Shown here in pieces: positions 8,366 to 17,299 of a DNA stretch of 64,000 nucleotides. Position 1 is the stretch's first letter. The number at the start of each line of letters is the position of its first letter. A program made the position numbers and the translations under genes. The stretch comes from Escherichia coli (GTDB taxonomy: Bacteria > Pseudomonadota > Gammaproteobacteria > Enterobacterales > Enterobacteriaceae), in assembly GCF_044324785.1 (NCBI RefSeq), contig NZ_CP172127.1; one strand, given 5' to 3'. The notes under the pieces are model-generated. The model ran no database searches and was not told the DNA's origin. It saw only the letters and a list, made by a program, of their open reading frames with translations.

Positions 8366-9520
8366 TTACTTCAGACCGGCAGCATCGCGCAGCAGCTGCG
8401 CTTTGTCGGTTTTTTCCCACGGGAAATGTTCGCGACCAAAGTGACCGTATGCTGCGGTTTCTTTGTAGATCGGGTGCAGCAGATCCAGCATCTGAATCAG
8501 ACCGTATGGACGCAGGTCAAAGAACTCACGTACCAGCAGAGTCAGTTGTTCAGAAGGCACTTTCTCGGTACCGAAAGTTTCCACCATGATAGAGGTCGGT
8601 TCAGCCACGCCGATTGCGTAGGAAACCTGAATTTCACAACGATCGGCCAGGCCAGCAGCAACGATGTTTTTCGCGACATAACGTGCTGCGTACGCTGCGG
8701 AACGGTCCACTTTTGATGGATCTTTACCAGAGAATGCACCACCACCGTGACGTGCCATGCCGCCGTAGGTATCAACGATAATTTTACGACCAGTCAGACC
8801 GCAGTCACCCATCGGGCCACCGATAACAAAACGACCGGTCGGGTTGATGAAGAATTTGGTGGCAGAAGTCAGCCATTCAGCCGGCAGAATCGGCTTGATG
8901 ATCTCTTCCATTACCGCTTCTTGCAGCGATTTCTGGTCGATTTCTTCAGAGTGCTGAGTGGAAAGCACGACAGCATCGATACCAACGATTTTGCCGTCGT
9001 CATACTGGAAAGTCACCTGGCTTTTCGCGTCCGGGCGCAGCCACGGCAGAGTGCCGTTTTTACGCACTTCAGCCTGACGCTGTACCAGACGGTGTGCATA
9101 GGTGATAGGCGCTGGCATCAGCACGTCGGTTTCATTGGTTGCGTAGCCAAACATCAGACCCTGGTCACCCGCGCCCTGTTCCAGCGGATCGGCACGGTCA
9201 ACGCCCTGGTTGATGTCAGGAGACTGTTTGCCGATAGCGCTCAGAACCGCACAGGAGTTAGCGTCAAAGCCCATGTCGGAATGTACATAGCCAATTTCGC
9301 GAACGGTGTTACGGGTGATCTCTTCGATGTCTACCCAGGCGCTGGTGGTGATTTCGCCGCCAACTAAAACCATGCCGGTTTTTACGTAGGTTTCGCAAGC
9401 AACGCGTGCTTTCGGATCCTGTTCGAGGATCGCGTCTAAAACGGCATCAGAGATTTGGTCAGCAATTTTGTCAGGATGCCCTTCAGAGACGGACTCGGAC
9501 GTAAAAAGGTGTTTTGCCAT
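8366..9520 (-). CDS. metK: S-adenosylmethionine synthetase
   Basis: Start at [25 protein letters not shown] (384 aa). Confidence 0.97.
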
Positions 9521-9575
9521 ATTTAATATCACCTAAAGAGAATTTGGTTAGCTCAAACTGTTGTGTGGATTTTCT

Positions 9576-9827
9576 GTGGTAGCGGATCCTACCACGACTC
9601 TGCAGGTTAAAAACACTGGCAGTCTGAGTGTTAATCGGTATGGATGGATTAACATCTGGATGGCTATTTTAGGTCAGTTCTTCACCCAATTTCCACTTTT
9701 TTTTGAATCGTGTCTCATTCTGTTAAAAACGTGGCTGGAAATTTTTCCTGACAATGCTGGCATTCTGCGTATTTATCTTTTGCAATTTTCTGCCATTGTG
9801 GGGTATAAAACGCGGCGCGCGGCTTAA
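9576..9827 (+). CDS. small hypothetical ORF (83 aa from GTG) in the metK-speA divergent region; possibly the K-12 yqgD annotation
   Basis: Open frame only; K-12 annotates an 83-aa y-gene near here; no conservation evidence available. Confidence 0.2.
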
Positions 9828-10039
9828 ATAAAAAGCACACGACGTTTCTTTCGTGTTGCCACTTCCAGCCGGGTTGAAATCAGAGTTTTGGCTTGTGGGT
9901 TCGTCTTAACAGGCGGCCGTGGAGGTGATACGAAATAATGAACCGTTGTCTGCTGCTTAACCTGTCTCACCGTTCTGGTGAAGATTCGTTCCCCGCACTC
10001 TGCATCTCTGCTTTGCATACCTGCCGATGTTATACCCAT
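9824..10039 (-). CDS. yqgC: small hypothetical protein YqgC
   Basis: 71-aa ORF; length and position match the K-12 yqgC annotation between metK and speA. Confidence 0.4.
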
Positions 10040-10096
10040 CTCGGCGCTTCTCAGGATTCAAGAGCTGGTTACAGTTACTGAGGACTGAACAAGGGC

Positions 10097-10120
10097 GCTC
10101 TTGTAAAAACAAGAGTTTTC
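10097..10120 (+). terminator. terminator-like hairpin upstream of yqgB/speA
   Basis: ctcttg-taaaaa-caagag followed by ttttctcgtggtttc. Confidence 0.4.
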
Positions 10121-10174
10121 TCGTGGTTTCGCCGAACTGTCACACTTACGTTCGGTTATGTGCTTAATAATGTT

Positions 10175-10306
10175 ATGAAAAAGAAACCGGTTGCGCAGTT
10201 GGAGCGTCAGCATTCACTGCTGGAAAATCCATGTGCTTATGGGTTGTTATCGCAGTTCCAGGCTGCGATAGTCGTTAACTGTTTTACACTTAATAAAATA
10301 ATTTGA
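10175..10306 (+). CDS. yqgB: small protein YqgB (43 aa) immediately upstream of speA
   Basis: ATG 10175; translation [43 protein letters not shown]; stop 8 nt before the speA ATG. Confidence 0.65.
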
Positions 10307-10314
10307 GGTTCGCT

Positions 10315-12291
10315 ATGTCTGACGACATGTCTATGGGTTTGCCTTCGTCAGCGGGCGAACACGGTGTACTACGCTCCATGCAGGAGGTTGCAATGAGCTC
10401 CCAGGAAGCCAGCAAGATGCTGCGTACTTACAATATTGCCTGGTGGGGCAATAACTACTATGACGTTAACGAGCTGGGCCACATTAGCGTGTGCCCGGAC
10501 CCGGACGTCCCGGAAGCTCGCGTCGATCTCGCGCAGTTAGTGAAAACTCGTGAAGCACAGGGCCAGCGTCTGCCTGCACTGTTCTGTTTCCCACAGATCC
10601 TGCAGCACCGTTTGCGTTCCATTAACGCCGCGTTCAAACGAGCGCGGGAATCCTACGGCTATAACGGCGATTACTTCCTCGTTTATCCGATCAAAGTTAA
10701 CCAGCACCGCCGCGTGATTGAGTCCCTGATTCATTCGGGCGAACCGCTGGGCCTGGAGGCCGGTTCCAAAGCGGAGTTGATGGCGGTGCTGGCACATGCT
10801 GGCATGACCCGTAGCGTCATCGTCTGCAACGGTTATAAGGACCGCGAATATATCCGCCTGGCATTAATTGGCGAGAAGATGGGCCACAAGGTCTATCTGG
10901 TCATTGAGAAGATGTCAGAAATTGCCATTGTGCTGGATGAAGCAGAACGTCTGAATGTCGTTCCTCGTCTGGGCGTGCGTGCACGTCTGGCTTCGCAGGG
11001 CTCGGGTAAATGGCAGTCCTCTGGCGGGGAAAAATCGAAGTTCGGCCTGGCGGCGACTCAGGTACTGCAACTGGTTGAAACGCTGCGTGAAGCCGGGCGT
11101 CTCGACAGCCTGCAACTGCTGCACTTCCACCTCGGTTCGCAGATGGCGAATATTCGCGATATCGCGACAGGCGTTCGTGAATCCGCGCGTTTCTATGTTG
11201 AGCTGCACAAGCTGGGCGTCAATATTCAGTGCTTCGACGTCGGCGGCGGTCTGGGCGTGGACTATGAAGGCACCCGTTCGCAGTCCGACTGTTCGGTGAA
11301 CTACGGCCTCAATGAATACGCCAACAACATCATCTGGGCGATTGGTGATGCGTGTGAAGAAAATGGTCTGCCGCATCCGACGGTAATCACCGAATCGGGT
11401 CGTGCGGTGACTGCGCATCACACCGTGCTGGTGTCGAATATCATCGGCGTGGAACGTAACGAATACACGGTGCCGACCGCGCCTGCAGAAGACGCACCGC
11501 GCGCCCTGCAAAGCATGTGGGAAACCTGGCAGGAGATGCACGAACCGGGAACTCGCCGTTCTCTGCGTGAATGGTTACACGACAGCCAGATGGATCTGCA
11601 CGATATTCATATCGGCTACTCTTCCGGCACCTTTAGCCTGCAAGAACGCGCATGGGCTGAGCAGCTTTATTTGAGCATGTGCCATGAAGTGCAAAAGCAG
11701 CTGGATCCGCAAAACCGTGCTCATCGTCCGATTATCGACGAGCTGCAGGAACGTATGGCGGACAAAATGTACGTCAACTTCTCGCTGTTCCAGTCGATGC
11801 CGGATGCGTGGGGGATCGACCAGTTGTTCCCGGTTCTGCCGCTGGAAGGGCTGGATCAAGTGCCGGAACGCCGCGCTGTGCTGCTGGATATTACCTGTGA
11901 CTCTGACGGTGCTATTGATCACTATATTGATGGTGATGGTATTGCCACGACAATGCCAATGCCGGAGTACGATCCAGAGAATCCGCCGATGCTCGGTTTC
12001 TTCATGGTCGGCGCATATCAGGAGATCCTCGGCAACATGCACAACCTGTTCGGTGATACCGAAGCGGTTGACGTGTTCGTCTTCCCTGACGGCAGCGTAG
12101 AAGTAGAACTGTCTGACGAAGGCGATACCGTGGCGGATATGCTGCAATATGTACAGCTCGATCCGAAAACGTTGTTAACCCAGTTCCGTGATCAAGTGAA
12201 GAAAACCGATCTTGATGCTGAACTGCAACAACAGTTCCTTGAAGAGTTCGAGGCAGGTTTGTACGGTTATACCTATCTTGAAGATGAATAA
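10315..12291 (+). CDS. speA: biosynthetic arginine decarboxylase
   Basis: Start at [49 protein letters not shown] (658 aa). Confidence 0.96.
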
Positions 12292-12308
12292 TTAAGATTA
12301 TTCCGCTG

Positions 12309-12349
12309 GCGGGTCGATTTATTTACGTAAATCGGCCCGCTTTCTTTTT
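12309..12349 (+). terminator. speA intrinsic terminator
   Basis: 13-bp stem gcgggtcgattta / taaatcggcccgc followed by tttcttttt. Confidence 0.8.
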
Positions 12350-12436
12350 ATATATTCTTAAAAATAATTTAGCTGCTTTTCTTATTAAATAATCCCCCTA
12401 CAATCGCTGCATTAATTAAATACAGAGGGAACGGTT

Positions 12437-13168
12437 ATGAAAAAATGGAAAGTACGTAGCGCGTTGATAGCATTAGTCGTGCTGCTGACCGGTTGTTCCA
12501 GTAATGCGCAGTATAATAGCAGTACATCGGGCAATGTCGGCACCGCCTGGGGTGGGGATGTGCACTCATCGGTTCAGGGCGTATCTGCTGAGCGAGCCTG
12601 GCGCGATCCGGCAGAGATGATCGTTATTAGTTATTCGACTACTGTTCCTTCGGGCTACGACCGCGTTTATAGCATTCGTATTAACGAACTGGAATATGCT
12701 ATTCGCGATGGTAATTTTAATTCTCTACCTATTACGCGGGTTTATGATTCATCCAATAATGAACCACGCTATATTGTCCATGCCAGAATCGGAATGAATT
12801 ATCAATTATATATCCGTAATTACAGTCGTAACACCAACTACGAGATCGTTGCTACGGTTGATGGCCTGGATGTGCTGAACGGCAAGCAAGGTTCGCTGAA
12901 TAACAATGGCTATATTGTGAATGCCGGAGATTCGTTAGCGATTAAAGGATTCCGCAAAGATAAACATACCGAAGCGGCTTTTCAGTTCGCCAACGTTGCT
13001 GATTCCTACGCAGCCAATTCGGCGCAAGGCGATGTGCGTAATACCGGGGTAATCGGCTTTGCCGCCTTTGAATTACAAGGCCCGGCGCAAAACGCGATGC
13101 CACCGTGCTCTGGACAAGCCTTTCCGGCAGATAACAATGGCTATGCACCGCCACCGTGCCGGAAATAG
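12437..13168 (+). CDS. predicted lipoprotein of unknown function (243 aa); not recalled at this locus in K-12
   Basis: ORF with SD gagggaa; N-terminus MKKWKVRSALIALVVLLTGCSSN has a signal peptide and lipobox LTG-C; AT-rich upstream region; own terminator downstream. Confidence 0.7.
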   Translation: MKKWKVRSALIALVVLLTGCSSNAQYNSSTSGNVGTAWGGDVHSSVQGVSAERAWRDPAEMIVISYSTTVPSGYDRVYSIRINELEYAIRDGNFNSLPITRVYDSSNNEPRYIVHARIGMNYQLYIRNYSRNTNYEIVATVDGLDVLNGKQGSLNNNGYIVNAGDSLAIKGFRKDKHTEAAFQFANVADSYAANSAQGDVRNTGVIGFAAFELQGPAQNAMPPCSGQAFPADNNGYAPPPCRK

Positions 13169-13235
13169 CAACCTCGCTTGATGCCTCGTCCATTTAAGGC
13201 GATAATTAGCGCAAACTTGTGTTTCGCAAATCCAA

Positions 13236-13275
13236 CCCTTCCTCGTCGGGCCTAACGACGCGGAAGGGTTTTTTT
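13236..13275 (+). terminator. intrinsic terminator after the lipoprotein gene
   Basis: cccttcctcgtcg ... cgacgcggaaggg hairpin followed by ttttttt, just upstream of the speB RBS. Confidence 0.8.
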
Positions 13276-13303
13276 ATATCGACTTTGTAATAGGAGTCCA
13301 TCC

Positions 13304-14224
13304 ATGAGCACCTTAGGTCATCAATACGATAACTCACTGGTTTCCAACGCCTTTGGTTTTTTACGCCTGCCGATGAACTTCCAGCCATATGACAGCGATG
13401 CTGACTGGGTGATTACTGGCGTGCCGTTCGATATGGCCACTTCTGGTCGTGCGGGGGGACGCCACGGTCCGGCAGCGATCCGTCAGGTTTCGACGAATCT
13501 GGCCTGGGAACACAATCGCTTCCCGTGGAATTTCGACATGCGTGAGCGCCTGAATGTCGTGGACTGCGGCGATCTGGTATATGCCTTCGGCGATGCCCGT
13601 GAGATGAGCGAGAAGCTGCAGGCGCACGCCGAGAAGCTGCTGGCTGCTGGTAAGCGTATGCTCTCCTTCGGTGGTGACCACTTTGTTACGCTGCCGCTGC
13701 TGCGTGCTCATGCGAAGCATTTCGGCAAAATGGCGCTGGTACACTTTGACGCCCACACCGACACCTATGCGAACGGTTGTGAATTTGACCACGGGACCAT
13801 GTTCTATACCGCGCCGAAAGAAGGTCTGATCGACCCGAATCATTCCGTGCAGATTGGTATTCGTACTGAGTTCGATAAAGACAACGGCTTTACCGTGCTG
13901 GACGCCTGCCAGGTGAACGATCGCAGCGTGGATGACGTTATCGCTCAGGTGAAACAGATTGTAGGTGATATGCCGGTTTACCTGACTTTTGATATCGACT
14001 GTCTGGATCCTGCTTTCGCGCCGGGAACTGGTACGCCGGTGATTGGCGGCCTGACCTCTGATCGCGCCATTAAACTGGTACGCGGCCTGAAAGATCTCAA
14101 CATTGTTGGGATGGACGTAGTGGAAGTGGCTCCGGCATACGATCAGTCGGAAATCACCGCTCTGGCTGCGGCGACGCTGGCGCTGGAGATGCTGTATATT
14201 CAGGCAGCGAAAAAGGGCGAGTAA
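13304..14224 (+). CDS. speB: agmatinase
   Basis: 306-aa [38 protein letters not shown]... Confidence 0.96.
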
Positions 14225-14271
14225 GCGCCGGATAAGATGCGTTATGCGTCAAATCCGGCGTAATAAAATGC

Positions 14272-15030
14272 TTACTTAACTCCATCCGCGCTCATACGAT
14301 CGCGAATATGCTGGGCGCGTTCGGCGGATGCTGGATGGTCGTCAAACATTGAGCTTTGACGGCCTTCTTCCAGCTTCGCCAGTTTTTCAAAGCTGGTGGC
14401 AAGACCTGCCGGGCTGATGCCGCGTTGGCGCAGAAGATCGTAAGAATAATCATCGGCTTCTGCTTCCTGGCGCTGGGAGAATTGCGAATTGACTAATTTC
14501 TCGCCCAGATCACCGAGTTGTGATTGCGATAAACTGCCGACAATCCCGCCCGCAGAGGCCGCAGCTACTCGTACGGCATTTGTACCAAGTGCCACCTGCA
14601 TCCCTTTCTTCACATGGCCTAACGCTACGTGCCCCATCTCGTGACCGATCACCGCTTCGACTTCGTTATCTGTCATCATATCCATCAGCCCGCTATAGAC
14701 GCGGATACAGCCGTTAGCCATTGCAAAGGCGTTCACATCCTTCGCCATATACACTTTGTAATTCACCGGCTGACCGTTGATATTGTTGCCTAGCGCATTG
14801 GCAATAGTTGTCAGACGTTTAGCGTATTCGCTATTGGCTGGCGCAATCGTCGCCTTGCTGTCCATCTCCTGACATGCCTGATCGCTCAGGGTTTTCACCT
14901 GCGCATCACTCAAACTGTAAGCCTGAAAAGCTTCCGCTCCTGATGAGAGCAGTCCGTTGGAGTCCATATTCTGGCAACCGGTCAGTACCGTTGCCACGCT
15001 CATTGCTACCAATAAGGCGCGAATTTTCAT
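14272..15030 (-). CDS. loiP: outer-membrane metalloprotease LoiP (YggG), lipoprotein
   Basis: Start at MKIRALLVAMSVATVLTGC (252 aa); HEMGH zinc motif. Confidence 0.92.
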   Translation of the reverse strand: MKIRALLVAMSVATVLTGCQNMDSNGLLSSGAEAFQAYSLSDAQVKTLSDQACQEMDSKATIAPANSEYAKRLTTIANALGNNINGQPVNYKVYMAKDVNAFAMANGCIRVYSGLMDMMTDNEVEAVIGHEMGHVALGHVKKGMQVALGTNAVRVAAASAGGIVGSLSQSQLGDLGEKLVNSQFSQRQEAEADDYSYDLLRQRGISPAGLATSFEKLAKLEEGRQSSMFDDHPASAERAQHIRDRMSADGVK

Positions 15031-15307
15031 GTTTTCTCTTCCGCACAAGGTCAGGATTATTCTAAAAATGCGCCGTTTGCAGGTGAATCGACGCTTAGTC
15101 TCAGTATAAGGAAAAGCGCAGCGGACGGGCGAGTAGATTGCGCAACATGCGAGCATGATCCAGAGATTTCTGAAGCAGCAAAAGGATGTTCCATGTACAT
15201 GACGCGCGGCTTGCGGTAAATTGTTGGCAAATTTTCCGGCGTAGCCCAAAACGCGCTGTCGTCAAGTCGTTAAGGGCGTGCCCTTCATCATCCGATCTGG
15301 AGTCAAA

Positions 15308-17299
15308 ATGTCCTCACGTAAAGAGCTTGCCAATGCTATTCGTGCGCTGAGCATGGACGCAGTACAGAAAGCCAAATCCGGTCACCCGGGTGCCCCTATG
15401 GGTATGGCTGACATTGCCGAAGTCCTGTGGCGTGATTTCCTGAAACACAACCCGCAGAATCCGTCCTGGGCTGACCGTGACCGCTTCGTGCTGTCCAACG
15501 GCCACGGCTCCATGCTGATCTACAGCCTGCTGCACCTCACCGGTTACGATCTGCCGATGGAAGAACTGAAAAACTTCCGTCAGCTGCACTCTAAAACTCC
15601 GGGTCACCCGGAAGTGGGTTACACCGCTGGTGTGGAAACCACTACTGGTCCGCTGGGTCAGGGTATTGCCAACGCAGTCGGTATGGCGATTGCAGAAAAA
15701 ACGCTGGCGGCGCAGTTTAACCGTCCGGGCCACGACATTGTCGACCACTACACCTACGCCTTCATGGGCGACGGCTGCATGATGGAAGGCATCTCCCACG
15801 AGGTTTGCTCTCTGGCGGGTACGCTGAAGCTGGGTAAACTGATTGCGTTCTACGATGACAACGGTATCTCTATCGATGGTCACGTTGAAGGCTGGTTTAC
15901 TGACGACACCGCAATGCGTTTCGAAGCTTACGGCTGGCACGTTATTCGCGGCATCGACGGTCATGACGCGGCATCCATCAAACGCGCAGTAGAAGAAGCG
16001 CGCGCAGTGACTGACAAACCGTCCCTGCTGATGTGCAAAACCATCATCGGTTTCGGTTCACCGAACAAAGCCGGTACGCACGACTCCCACGGTGCGCCGC
16101 TGGGCGACGCTGAAATCGCCCTGACCCGCGAACAGCTGGGCTGGAAATATGCACCGTTCGAAATCCCGTCTGAAATCTATGCTCAGTGGGATGCGAAAGA
16201 AGCAGGCCAGGCGAAAGAATCCGCATGGAACGAGAAATTCGCAGCTTACGCGAAAGCTTATCCGCAGGAAGCCGCTGAATTTACCCGCCGTATGAAAGGC
16301 GAAATGCCGTCTGACTTCGACGCTAAAGCGAAAGAGTTCATCGCTAAACTGCAGGCTAACCCGGCGAAAATCGCCAGCCGTAAAGCGTCTCAGAATGCGA
16401 TTGAAGCGTTCGGTCCGCTGTTGCCGGAATTCCTCGGCGGCTCTGCTGACCTGGCACCGTCTAACCTGACCCTGTGGTCTGGTTCTAAAGCAATCAACGA
16501 AGATGCTGCGGGTAACTACATCCACTACGGTGTTCGCGAGTTCGGTATGACCGCGATTGCTAACGGTATCTCCCTGCACGGTGGCTTCCTGCCGTACACC
16601 TCCACCTTCCTGATGTTCGTGGAATACGCACGTAACGCCGTACGTATGGCTGCGCTGATGAAACAGCGTCAGGTGATGGTTTACACCCACGACTCCATCG
16701 GTCTGGGCGAAGATGGCCCGACTCACCAGCCGGTAGAGCAGGTTGCTTCTCTGCGCGTGACCCCGAACATGTCTACATGGCGTCCATGTGACCAGGTTGA
16801 ATCTGCAGTGGCATGGAAATACGGTGTTGAGCGTCAGGACGGCCCGACTGCGCTTATCCTCTCCCGTCAGAACCTGGCGCAGCAGGAGCGTACTGAAGAG
16901 CAGCTGGCAAACATCGCGCGCGGTGGTTATGTGCTGAAAGACTGTGCCGGTCAGCCGGAACTGATCTTCATCGCGACCGGTTCGGAAGTTGAACTGGCGG
17001 TTGCCGCCTACGAAAAACTGACTGCCGAAGGCGTGAAGGCGCGCGTGGTTTCCATGCCGTCTACCGACGCATTCGACAAGCAGGATGCGGCTTACCGTGA
17101 ATCCGTACTGCCGAAAGCGGTTACTGCACGCGTTGCGGTGGAAGCTGGCATTGCTGACTACTGGTACAAGTATGTTGGCCTGAACGGTGCTATCGTCGGC
17201 ATGACCACCTTCGGTGAGTCTGCCCCGGCAGAACTGCTGTTTGAAGAGTTCGGCTTCACCGTTGACAACGTTGTTGCGAAAGCAAAAGAACTGCTGTAA
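15308..17299 (+). CDS. tktA: transketolase 1
   Basis: Start at [35 protein letters not shown] (663 aa). Confidence 0.97.

Follow-up and report, generated by a model that had tools for sequence, protein, structure and literature searches.

The closest described counterparts of the gene considered here are solitary lipoproteins of the bacterial envelope. LpoA and LpoB, as is generally known, are sorted by the Lol pathway and carry one small globular domain on a variable disordered tether, while the lysozyme inhibitors MliC/PliC, PliG, PliI and Ivy are small, solitary proteins, mostly beta in structure and patchy in distribution, which are periplasmic or anchored in the outer membrane. The gene in question encodes a 243-residue lipoprotein between speA and speB in a stretch of 64,000 nucleotides of Escherichia coli DNA (contig NZ_CP172127.1), hereafter the window. 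It resembles LpoA and LpoB by analogy of architecture, including its solitary position, and differs from them in that no similarity of sequence or fold was found, no link to a penicillin-binding protein was shown, and the gene is dispensable in one-third of the E. coli genomes. With the lysozyme inhibitors it shares the general traits just listed, and possibly regulation by envelope stress, which is a lead only.

The gene is already present in databases as that of a hypothetical lipoprotein. The O157:H7 record WP_000758914.1 ('lipoprotein') is the same gene, the 1012-bp gap of O157 being 97% identical in DNA sequence, and the Salmonella orthologue, which we take to be STM3085 ('putative outer membrane lipoprotein'), is again the same gene at the same locus, with 75% protein identity. 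Both records carry automatic names only. No functional study of WP_000758914 or of the speA-speB gene was found in the literature, where STM3085 appeared solely in a table of off-target sites of a peptide nucleic acid (PNA). A solitary outer-membrane lipoprotein is a familiar kind of gene, and not a new system. What is useful here is the recognition that K-12 carries a deletion allele, the size of the protein family together with its 'dark' status, and the consequences for speA-speB transcription. The whole of the best explanation, namely a functional, independently transcribed lipoprotein gene, ancestral at its site and encoding a binding module, can be given a probability of about 0.5; its statements on identity and evolution, taken together, are very probably correct.

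The gene and its ancestry at the speA-speB junction

The gene order in the window is metK (- strand), yqgD/yqgB, speA, the 243-residue open reading frame (ORF; + strand), speB (13304-14224), loiP (- strand) and tktA. With the end of speA at 12291 and the start of speB at 13304, the gap between them is of 1012 bp, the value given in a preliminary description of this DNA; the K-12 gap, put there at roughly 140 bp with no gene, measures 137 bp in the K-12 derivative J53 and has no gene annotated in it. The program-made ORF list has the 243 codons plus stop at 12437-13168 of the + strand, again as first described. The orthologue of O157:H7 SS52 is the one annotated in RefSeq as 'lipoprotein'. Compared with the orthologues of Escherichia whittamii, Salmonella, Citrobacter and Klebsiella aerogenes, the ratio of nonsynonymous to synonymous substitution rates (Ka/Ks) was 0.05-0.11, indicating purifying selection. 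It is a real, conserved gene that evolves under purifying selection. The earlier view of a genuine, self-contained lipoprotein gene without a K-12 counterpart is borne out by the ORF, its lipobox, the conserved terminator and -10 box upstream of it, the purifying selection and the gene-free gap of K-12-type strains. The three findings that might have spoken against that view were not encountered: K-12 does not have the gene, no known family was matched and the lipoprotein signal is present.

On one point the preliminary description has to be reversed. It considered the gene as inserted between speA and speB, while the orthologue stands directly after speA across the Enterobacteriaceae and in other Escherichia species. 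In a synteny scan that took one genome per species, about 18 genomes of Enterobacteriaceae or Escherichia species had it in the same position. The order speA-gene-speB was found in E. whittamii, two unnamed Escherichia species, Citrobacter, Kluyvera, K. spallanzanii, Phytobacter, Kosakonia and an Enterobacter sp., and the orthologue of K. aerogenes is also located between speA and speB. In Salmonella it directly follows speA and is itself followed by a GntR/mannitol-dehydrogenase island, in Entomohabitans two extra ORFs separate it from speA, and in E. albertii it is directly upstream of speB, on a contig that starts inside the gene.

Within E. coli, the presence or absence of the gene is close to a cleanly biallelic polymorphism. 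Among 5426 complete genomes there were 3550 carriers (at least 80% of the region present) and 1867 with the K-12-type junction. Disrupted copies also occur: GN25 (NZ_CP139196.1) has an IS1 insertion, the copy of NZ_AP045810.1 covers 56% of the region, and the Shigella dysenteriae entries of AFDB are gene fragments. These disrupted copies, together with the one-third of E. coli without the gene, indicate that it is non-essential.

To follow how the K-12-type junction relates to that of the carriers, the following features of the locus are needed.

12308..12351, + strand: speA intrinsic terminator, with a 15-bp stem and a 4-nt loop, followed by TTTCTTTTTAT (terminator scan, RNA fold, conservation)
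12399..12404, + strand: putative -10 box TACAAT of the lipoprotein gene promoter (conservation in 10 genera)
12424..12430, + strand: Shine-Dalgarno sequence AGAGGGA (read from the sequence; GGGA/AGG core conserved in the 10-genus alignment)
12437..13168, + strand: lipoprotein ORF (ORF list, annotated orthologue, Ka/Ks, homologues)
13177..13206, + strand: promoter-like box TTGATG-N17-GATAAT (promoter scan, conservation)
13234..13277, + strand: terminator-like hairpin with T-run, 27 nt upstream of the speB ATG (RNA fold, inverted repeat, conservation)

The pairwise alignment of the 60-nt spacer of K-12 with the window was not significant by itself. In an alignment of 12 sequences, the 60 nt of the K-12-type allele were homologous to the stretch located just 3' of the lipoprotein stop codon, and the speA stop codon of K-12 aligned where carriers have the lipoprotein stop codon. 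As judged from this alignment, the K-12-type allele is a clean deletion of about 875 bp comprising the speA terminator, the promoter and the ORF. The same-site orthologues of the outgroups and the spacer homology together indicate that K-12-type strains lost the gene. It is thus ancestral at speA-speB in the Enterobacteriaceae, and about one-third of E. coli, including K-12 and BL21-type strains, have it deleted. This means that the laboratory strains show the derived state at a textbook locus, and that about two-thirds of complete E. coli genomes, and also Salmonella, Klebsiella and Citrobacter, encode an extra envelope protein there.

The ORF was correctly described as more AT-rich than its neighbours. 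Its GC content is 48.4% (47% at third codon positions, GC3) versus 54.8% for speA and 55.3% for speB (GC3 of 62-63%), and that of the spacer upstream of it is 33.8%. The GC3 of the orthologue is low elsewhere too, with 0.49 versus 0.65 for speA in Salmonella and 0.51 versus 0.74 in K. aerogenes. This common character points to a long-standing trait rather than to a sign of recent import.

A mobile-element or genomic-island origin was considered and rejected. No flanking direct or inverted repeats were found around the gene, and no integrase or transposase was found among the flanking ORFs and annotated genes, tRNA genes not being included in the scan. There were no copies on mobilisable plasmids, as the matches in the plasmid collection were mislabelled chromosome pieces or Burkholderia megareplicons, all non-mobilisable. 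The conserved synteny was also counted against such an origin.

Two other observations concern the alleles themselves. The 60-nt spacer of the K-12-type allele (L002, 2941-3000, versus 13169-13226 of the window) is about 40% divergent from the carrier allele; in the same stretch, E. whittamii and E. albertii are only a few bases off the window, and identity in the flanks is 95-100%. Rather than a recent deletion of the local carrier allele, that of the K-12 type seems to be old or imported. Concerning the window allele (12437-13168), it is at most 98.8% identical to that of any of 3556 matching complete E. coli genomes, the closest ones including those of IAI39, CE10 and O6:H16 enterotoxigenic E. 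coli (ETEC) strains. This, together with a synonymous divergence (Ks) of 0.10 between speA of the window and that of O157, indicates that the haplotype of the source strain is fairly divergent in this region.

The protein, its family and its gene contexts

The protein is divided into the following parts.

12437..12496, + strand: signal peptide with lipobox L-T-G-C (PS51257-type pattern; Cys20 codon at 12494-12496)
12497..12532, + strand: predicted flexible tether, residues 21-32 (pLDDT below 50 for residues 21-30)
12533..13078, + strand: all-beta sandwich of the AlphaFold2 model, residues 33-214 (about 180 residues)
13079..13165, + strand: Pro-rich C-terminal tail with the motif FPxD..GYAPPP (39-homologue alignment)

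The lipoprotein signal was evaluated by the occurrence, within the first 35 residues or so, of a positively charged n-region, a hydrophobic h-region and the sequence [LVI][ASTVI][GAS]-C. The protein starts with MKKWKVRSALIALVVLLTG, followed by CSS, and its parts MKKWKVR, SALIALVVLL and LTG-C20 match the regular expression of the PROSITE PS51257 type, in agreement with the LTG-C lipobox reported before. Cys20 is invariant in the alignment of 39 homologues, and 109 of 113 close homologues, as well as 115 of 142 distant representatives, have a lipobox. The precursor should be cleaved at Cys20 and lipidated. Positions +2 and +3 of the E. coli protein are both Ser, so there is no Lol-avoidance signal, and none of the 224 lipobox-bearing members of the family has Asp at +2. 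By the sorting rule of E. coli, Ser at +2 predicts an outer-membrane location, to which the protein would be delivered by the Lol pathway. The conserved lipobox, the lack of Asp at +2 and the paired Cys residues described below are all indicative of an extracytoplasmic location.

The mature protein contains 10.8% Ala, 10.3% Asn, 9.4% Ser and 6.3% Tyr, in line with its first description as Asn/Ser/Tyr-rich, and its C-terminal PPC...PPPC pair corresponds to Cys224 (codon 13106-13108) and Cys241 (codon 13157-13159). An AlphaFold2 model, obtained from the 39-sequence alignment with a mean predicted local distance difference test score (pLDDT) of 84.5 and a predicted template modelling score (pTM) of 0.74, displays 13 strands between residues 33 and 213 forming the sandwich, which contains the conserved motifs GTxWG, YEIVATVDGLDV, GFRK and AAFxF; the C-terminal tail is less confident. 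The length of the tether varies across the family from about 12 to more than 130 residues. Non-lipobox Cys residues number zero in 135 family proteins, two in 110 and one in 15. Counts of zero or two fit disulfides formed in an oxidising compartment, and a Cys224-Cys241 disulfide probably pins the tail.

Conservation was evaluated in 133 sequences. The invariant residues are R53, Y122, G143, G171, R173, F182 and G204, and the nearly invariant ones T36, G39, S44, P58, Y66, N128, E136, D142, D145, Y159, Y191 and the FP...YAPPP tail; no His, Cys or Ser that might act as a nucleophile is invariant. Between E. coli and the Betaproteobacteria 34 positions are invariant. The family members examined have no fused domains, only low-complexity tethers, and a few are circular permutants. 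In the latter (P0287, P0289 and P0295, at loci L091-L093) the core sandwich comes first, and the GTxYGE...Y hairpin and the YAPPP tail come after a low-complexity linker.

The E. coli protein belongs to a large unnamed family of Alpha-, Beta- and Gammaproteobacteria and Myxococcota. All of its 276 close homologues are named hypothetical, lipoprotein or membrane protein, and carry no Pfam domain. A profile search of 1.84 billion cluster representatives yielded 4177 clusters, counted at 50% identity, with E values up to 1e-3, and 3236 with E values up to 1e-10. The taxa include Enterobacterales, Pseudomonas, Acinetobacter, Moraxella, Neisseria, Kingella, Burkholderia, Ralstonia, Comamonadaceae, Paracoccus, Inquilinus and Chondromyces.

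The preliminary description could not place the protein in any family by eye, and the searches did not place it either. With Pfam-A there was no match of the query even at E values up to 10, nor of 39 and then 133 family members at E values up to 0.001. NCBIfam gave matches at the level of the signal peptide only (E values of at least 0.012, far under the cut-offs), and the PADLOC profiles of anti-phage defence gave no matching family. The best PHROGs match, with an E value of 0.007 over residues 10-96, signal peptide included, was not significant. Sequence and profile searches of the PDB gave no match, Foldseek against AFDB50 retrieved family members only, and no similarity of sequence or fold was found to solved lysozyme inhibitors or immunity proteins of the type VI secretion system (T6SS). 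The sandwich model bears a generic fold resemblance, and only that, to MATH/TRAF-like domains and fungal DUF7918 domains. These are eukaryotic intracellular domains without sequence similarity to the family (0 of 133 members with a Pfam match), which has as features of its own two extra N-terminal strands and the conserved C-terminal tail. A family of about 4200 clusters is thus left with no profile, structure or published function, and it is a tractable one, given the confident fold and the natural null alleles.

The context of the gene was surveyed in 80 genomes and in distant family members. There was no neighbour shared across taxa, and the gene was solitary in every context examined. Outside the speA-speB locus, its locations were as follows.

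Providencia: between metJ and an OmpX/Ail/Adr-like barrel gene
Gilliamella: between thrS and recO
Neisseria: between a small lipoprotein gene and mltG (opposite strands)
Pseudomonas aeruginosa PA7: between a phosphonate ABC transporter and a phospholipase C gene
Distant metagenomic members: solitary too
Variovorax, Acidovorax and Xenophilus: inside the his operon, between hisD and hisC

The barrel gene of Providencia (L027, 6859-7596, and other loci) is downstream on the same strand, and its product matches the adhesin Adr subfamily of NCBIfam with an E value of 4e-26, under the curated cut-off. A second-site copy, with 63% identity, was observed in Citrobacter sp. 18056 (L021, 5971-6732) among genes that are lipid-enzyme-like or of no assigned kind, with a transposase-like ORF about 3 kb downstream. 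The locus labelled 'Chryseobacterium sp. 18061' (L020) shows the same match statistics, ORF clusters and ORF lengths as that of Citrobacter sp. 18056, which suggests a mislabelled or contaminated assembly.

Possible functions of the lipoprotein

The protein may be a non-catalytic, periplasmic binding module tethered to the outer membrane, a tentative reading with the odds somewhat against it. According to it, the signal peptide would be cut at Cys20 and this residue lipidated, the Lol pathway would carry the lipoprotein to the outer membrane, and the protein would remain on the inner face of this membrane by means of its flexible tether. From there, the domain could bind a conserved ligand of the periplasm or envelope, i.e. 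a peptide, a protein segment or a cell-wall component, through a putative surface made of R53, R173, Y122, E136, D142, D145, N128 and conserved aromatics. Binding is preferred to catalysis because the model is confidently all-beta, an invariant nucleophile (His, Ser or Cys) is missing, and there are no fused domains.

Several points weigh against this interpretation. The genome context yields no shared partner across taxa. Lipidation and outer-membrane sorting are predictions from sequence rules, and the promoter discussed below is a putative one, recognised by conservation. The clustering of the conserved residues on one surface is presumed, and the conserved Asp, Glu and Tyr could equally make a catalytic or sugar-binding site. 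A bolder version, in which the protein represents a new class of outer-membrane-tethered periplasmic factor, e.g. a shield against peptidoglycan hydrolases or an envelope regulator reaching out by its tether, is doubtful. If it were true, the family would have been overlooked because laboratory strains deleted the gene, and losing the gene would also have altered the wiring of speA-speB transcription in K-12. Since nothing points to a multi-gene system or an unusual mechanism, the gene is of modest practical importance.

The main rival, weakly supported and unlikely, is a protective role similar to that of inhibitors or immunity proteins, in which the tethered sandwich would block enzymes that come in from outside and degrade the cell wall, for instance a T6SS amidase or a lysozyme-type hydrolase. 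MliC, PliG, Ivy and the Tai proteins are examples of such blocking proteins. The solitary gene, its patchy distribution and its presence/absence polymorphism within E. coli agree with this role, as do the predicted periplasmic lipoprotein character and, as a weak lead, a conserved RcsAB-box-like element upstream. Further support comes from the his-operon homologues of the Comamonadaceae, where a small ORF lies 5-12 bp downstream of the homologue in 25 loci of Variovorax, Acidovorax and Xenophilus. In Variovorax (L008, 6001-7205) the one copy scanned matched Rap1a, a Pfam family comprising immunity proteins against T6SS amidases, with an i-E value of 7e-6; for the small ORF of Acidovorax (L010, 6001-7233) there is no Pfam match on record. 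All these loci belong to one lineage, however, and the pairing counts as one evolutionary event. Moreover, there is no sequence match to a solved inhibitor or immunity protein, no effector gene is nearby in E. coli, and 34 positions invariant as far as the Betaproteobacteria, with Ka/Ks around 0.1, would be unusually conservative for immunity proteins.

An enzyme or lectin, with E136, D142, D145, Y122 and R173 as a glycan-binding or hydrolytic site acting on peptidoglycan or polysaccharide, is improbable. The pattern of conserved acidic, aromatic and Arg residues would be compatible with it, one family member in AFDB (rank 47) is named N-acetylmuramoyl-L-alanine amidase, and mltG adjoins the gene in Neisseria. 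However, the amidase name was assigned automatically and stands alone among hundreds of 'lipoprotein' or 'uncharacterized' entries, mltG is on the opposite strand, and no enzyme family or fold was matched.

A link to polyamines, i.e. the periplasmic binding or sensing of agmatine, putrescine or arginine, would explain the position between speA and speB, and is improbable as well. The order speA-gene-speB is kept across the Enterobacteriaceae, and the invariant acidic and aromatic residues recall the polyamine-binding sites generally known from PotD and PotF. Nevertheless, a strong conserved terminator insulates the gene from speA, the contexts outside the Enterobacteriaceae (metJ, thrS/recO, mltG, plc, the his operon) are unrelated to polyamines, and one-third of the E. 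coli genomes do without the gene.

Finally, the recent landing of a foreign low-GC cassette between speA and speB in the lineage of the strain, suggested by the GC3 of 47% against 62-63% in the neighbours and by the lack of the gene in K-12, is very improbable, since it is already contradicted by the same-site orthologues of Salmonella, Klebsiella, Citrobacter, Kluyvera, Phytobacter, Kosakonia, E. albertii and E. whittamii, by the low GC3 common to the outgroup orthologues, by the lack of flanking repeats and of mobility genes among the surrounding ORFs and annotated genes, and by the homology of the K-12 spacer to the region that follows the gene.

Transcription signals around the gene

The ORF follows the speA terminator, as first described. 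The hairpin at 12308-12341 with its T-run folds with -23.4 kcal/mol (z = -4.5), and in the alignment of the upstream spacer it is kept, with compensatory changes, across 10 genera. Since a strong terminator separates speA from speB in carriers, the picture of speA-speB co-transcription derived from K-12 may not hold for most strains.

Concerning the AT-rich, promoter-like region that had been noticed upstream of the ORF, the evidence is divided. An AT-rich tract (12350-12395) precedes the putative -10 box TACAAT at 12399-12404, of which TA...T is invariant in 10 genera, but the sigma-70 consensus scan of 12342-12436 called no promoter, and there is no strong -35 box. From the conservation of the -10 box across 10 genera we infer that the lipoprotein gene has an independent promoter, which would place the start of transcription near 12411. 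The Shine-Dalgarno sequence claimed before is AGAGGGA, at 12424-12430, 6-7 nt upstream of the ATG.

The RcsAB-box-like element mentioned above, TAAGATTATTCCGC, is at 12293-12306, directly 3' of the speA stop codon, and agrees at 11 of 14 positions with the RcsAB box consensus. It is part of a conserved block common to Escherichia, Salmonella, Citrobacter and Klebsiella. Sites of this kind occur 7 times in the window, versus 3.15 expected, which is not significant alone. In the region 9500-15500 of the window, neither of the two hairpins nor the spacers matched an Rfam covariance model at E values up to 1.

Downstream of the ORF, the hairpin at 13234-13270 with its T-run folds with -24.4 kcal/mol (z = -5.0) and is conserved in 10 of 12 genera. 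It had been described as the gene's own strong terminator. Strong it is, but it is not private to the gene, being present in K-12-type genomes that lack it. The last 77 nt before speB (13227-13303) match 5425 of 5426 E. coli genomes, with 98.7-100% identity among the matches listed, and are identical in the K-12-type J53. The hairpin probably ends the lipoprotein transcript and is also within the speB leader. In carrier strains, read-through from speA to speB would have to cross two strong hairpins.

Between the ORF and this hairpin, CTTG and GATAAT of the promoter-like box at 13177-13206 are invariant in 12 of 12 aligned Enterobacteriaceae sequences, the K-12-type allele included. The box is a probable proximal promoter of speB, rather than one of the lipoprotein gene. 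Szumanski and Boyle (1990) reportedly described for speB, besides the read-through from speA, a promoter of its own, for which the box is a good candidate. The hairpin starts about 27 nt after the box and, with its T-run, ends 27 nt before the speB ATG, an arrangement that suggests either attenuation in the speB leader or a transcript of about 65 nt.

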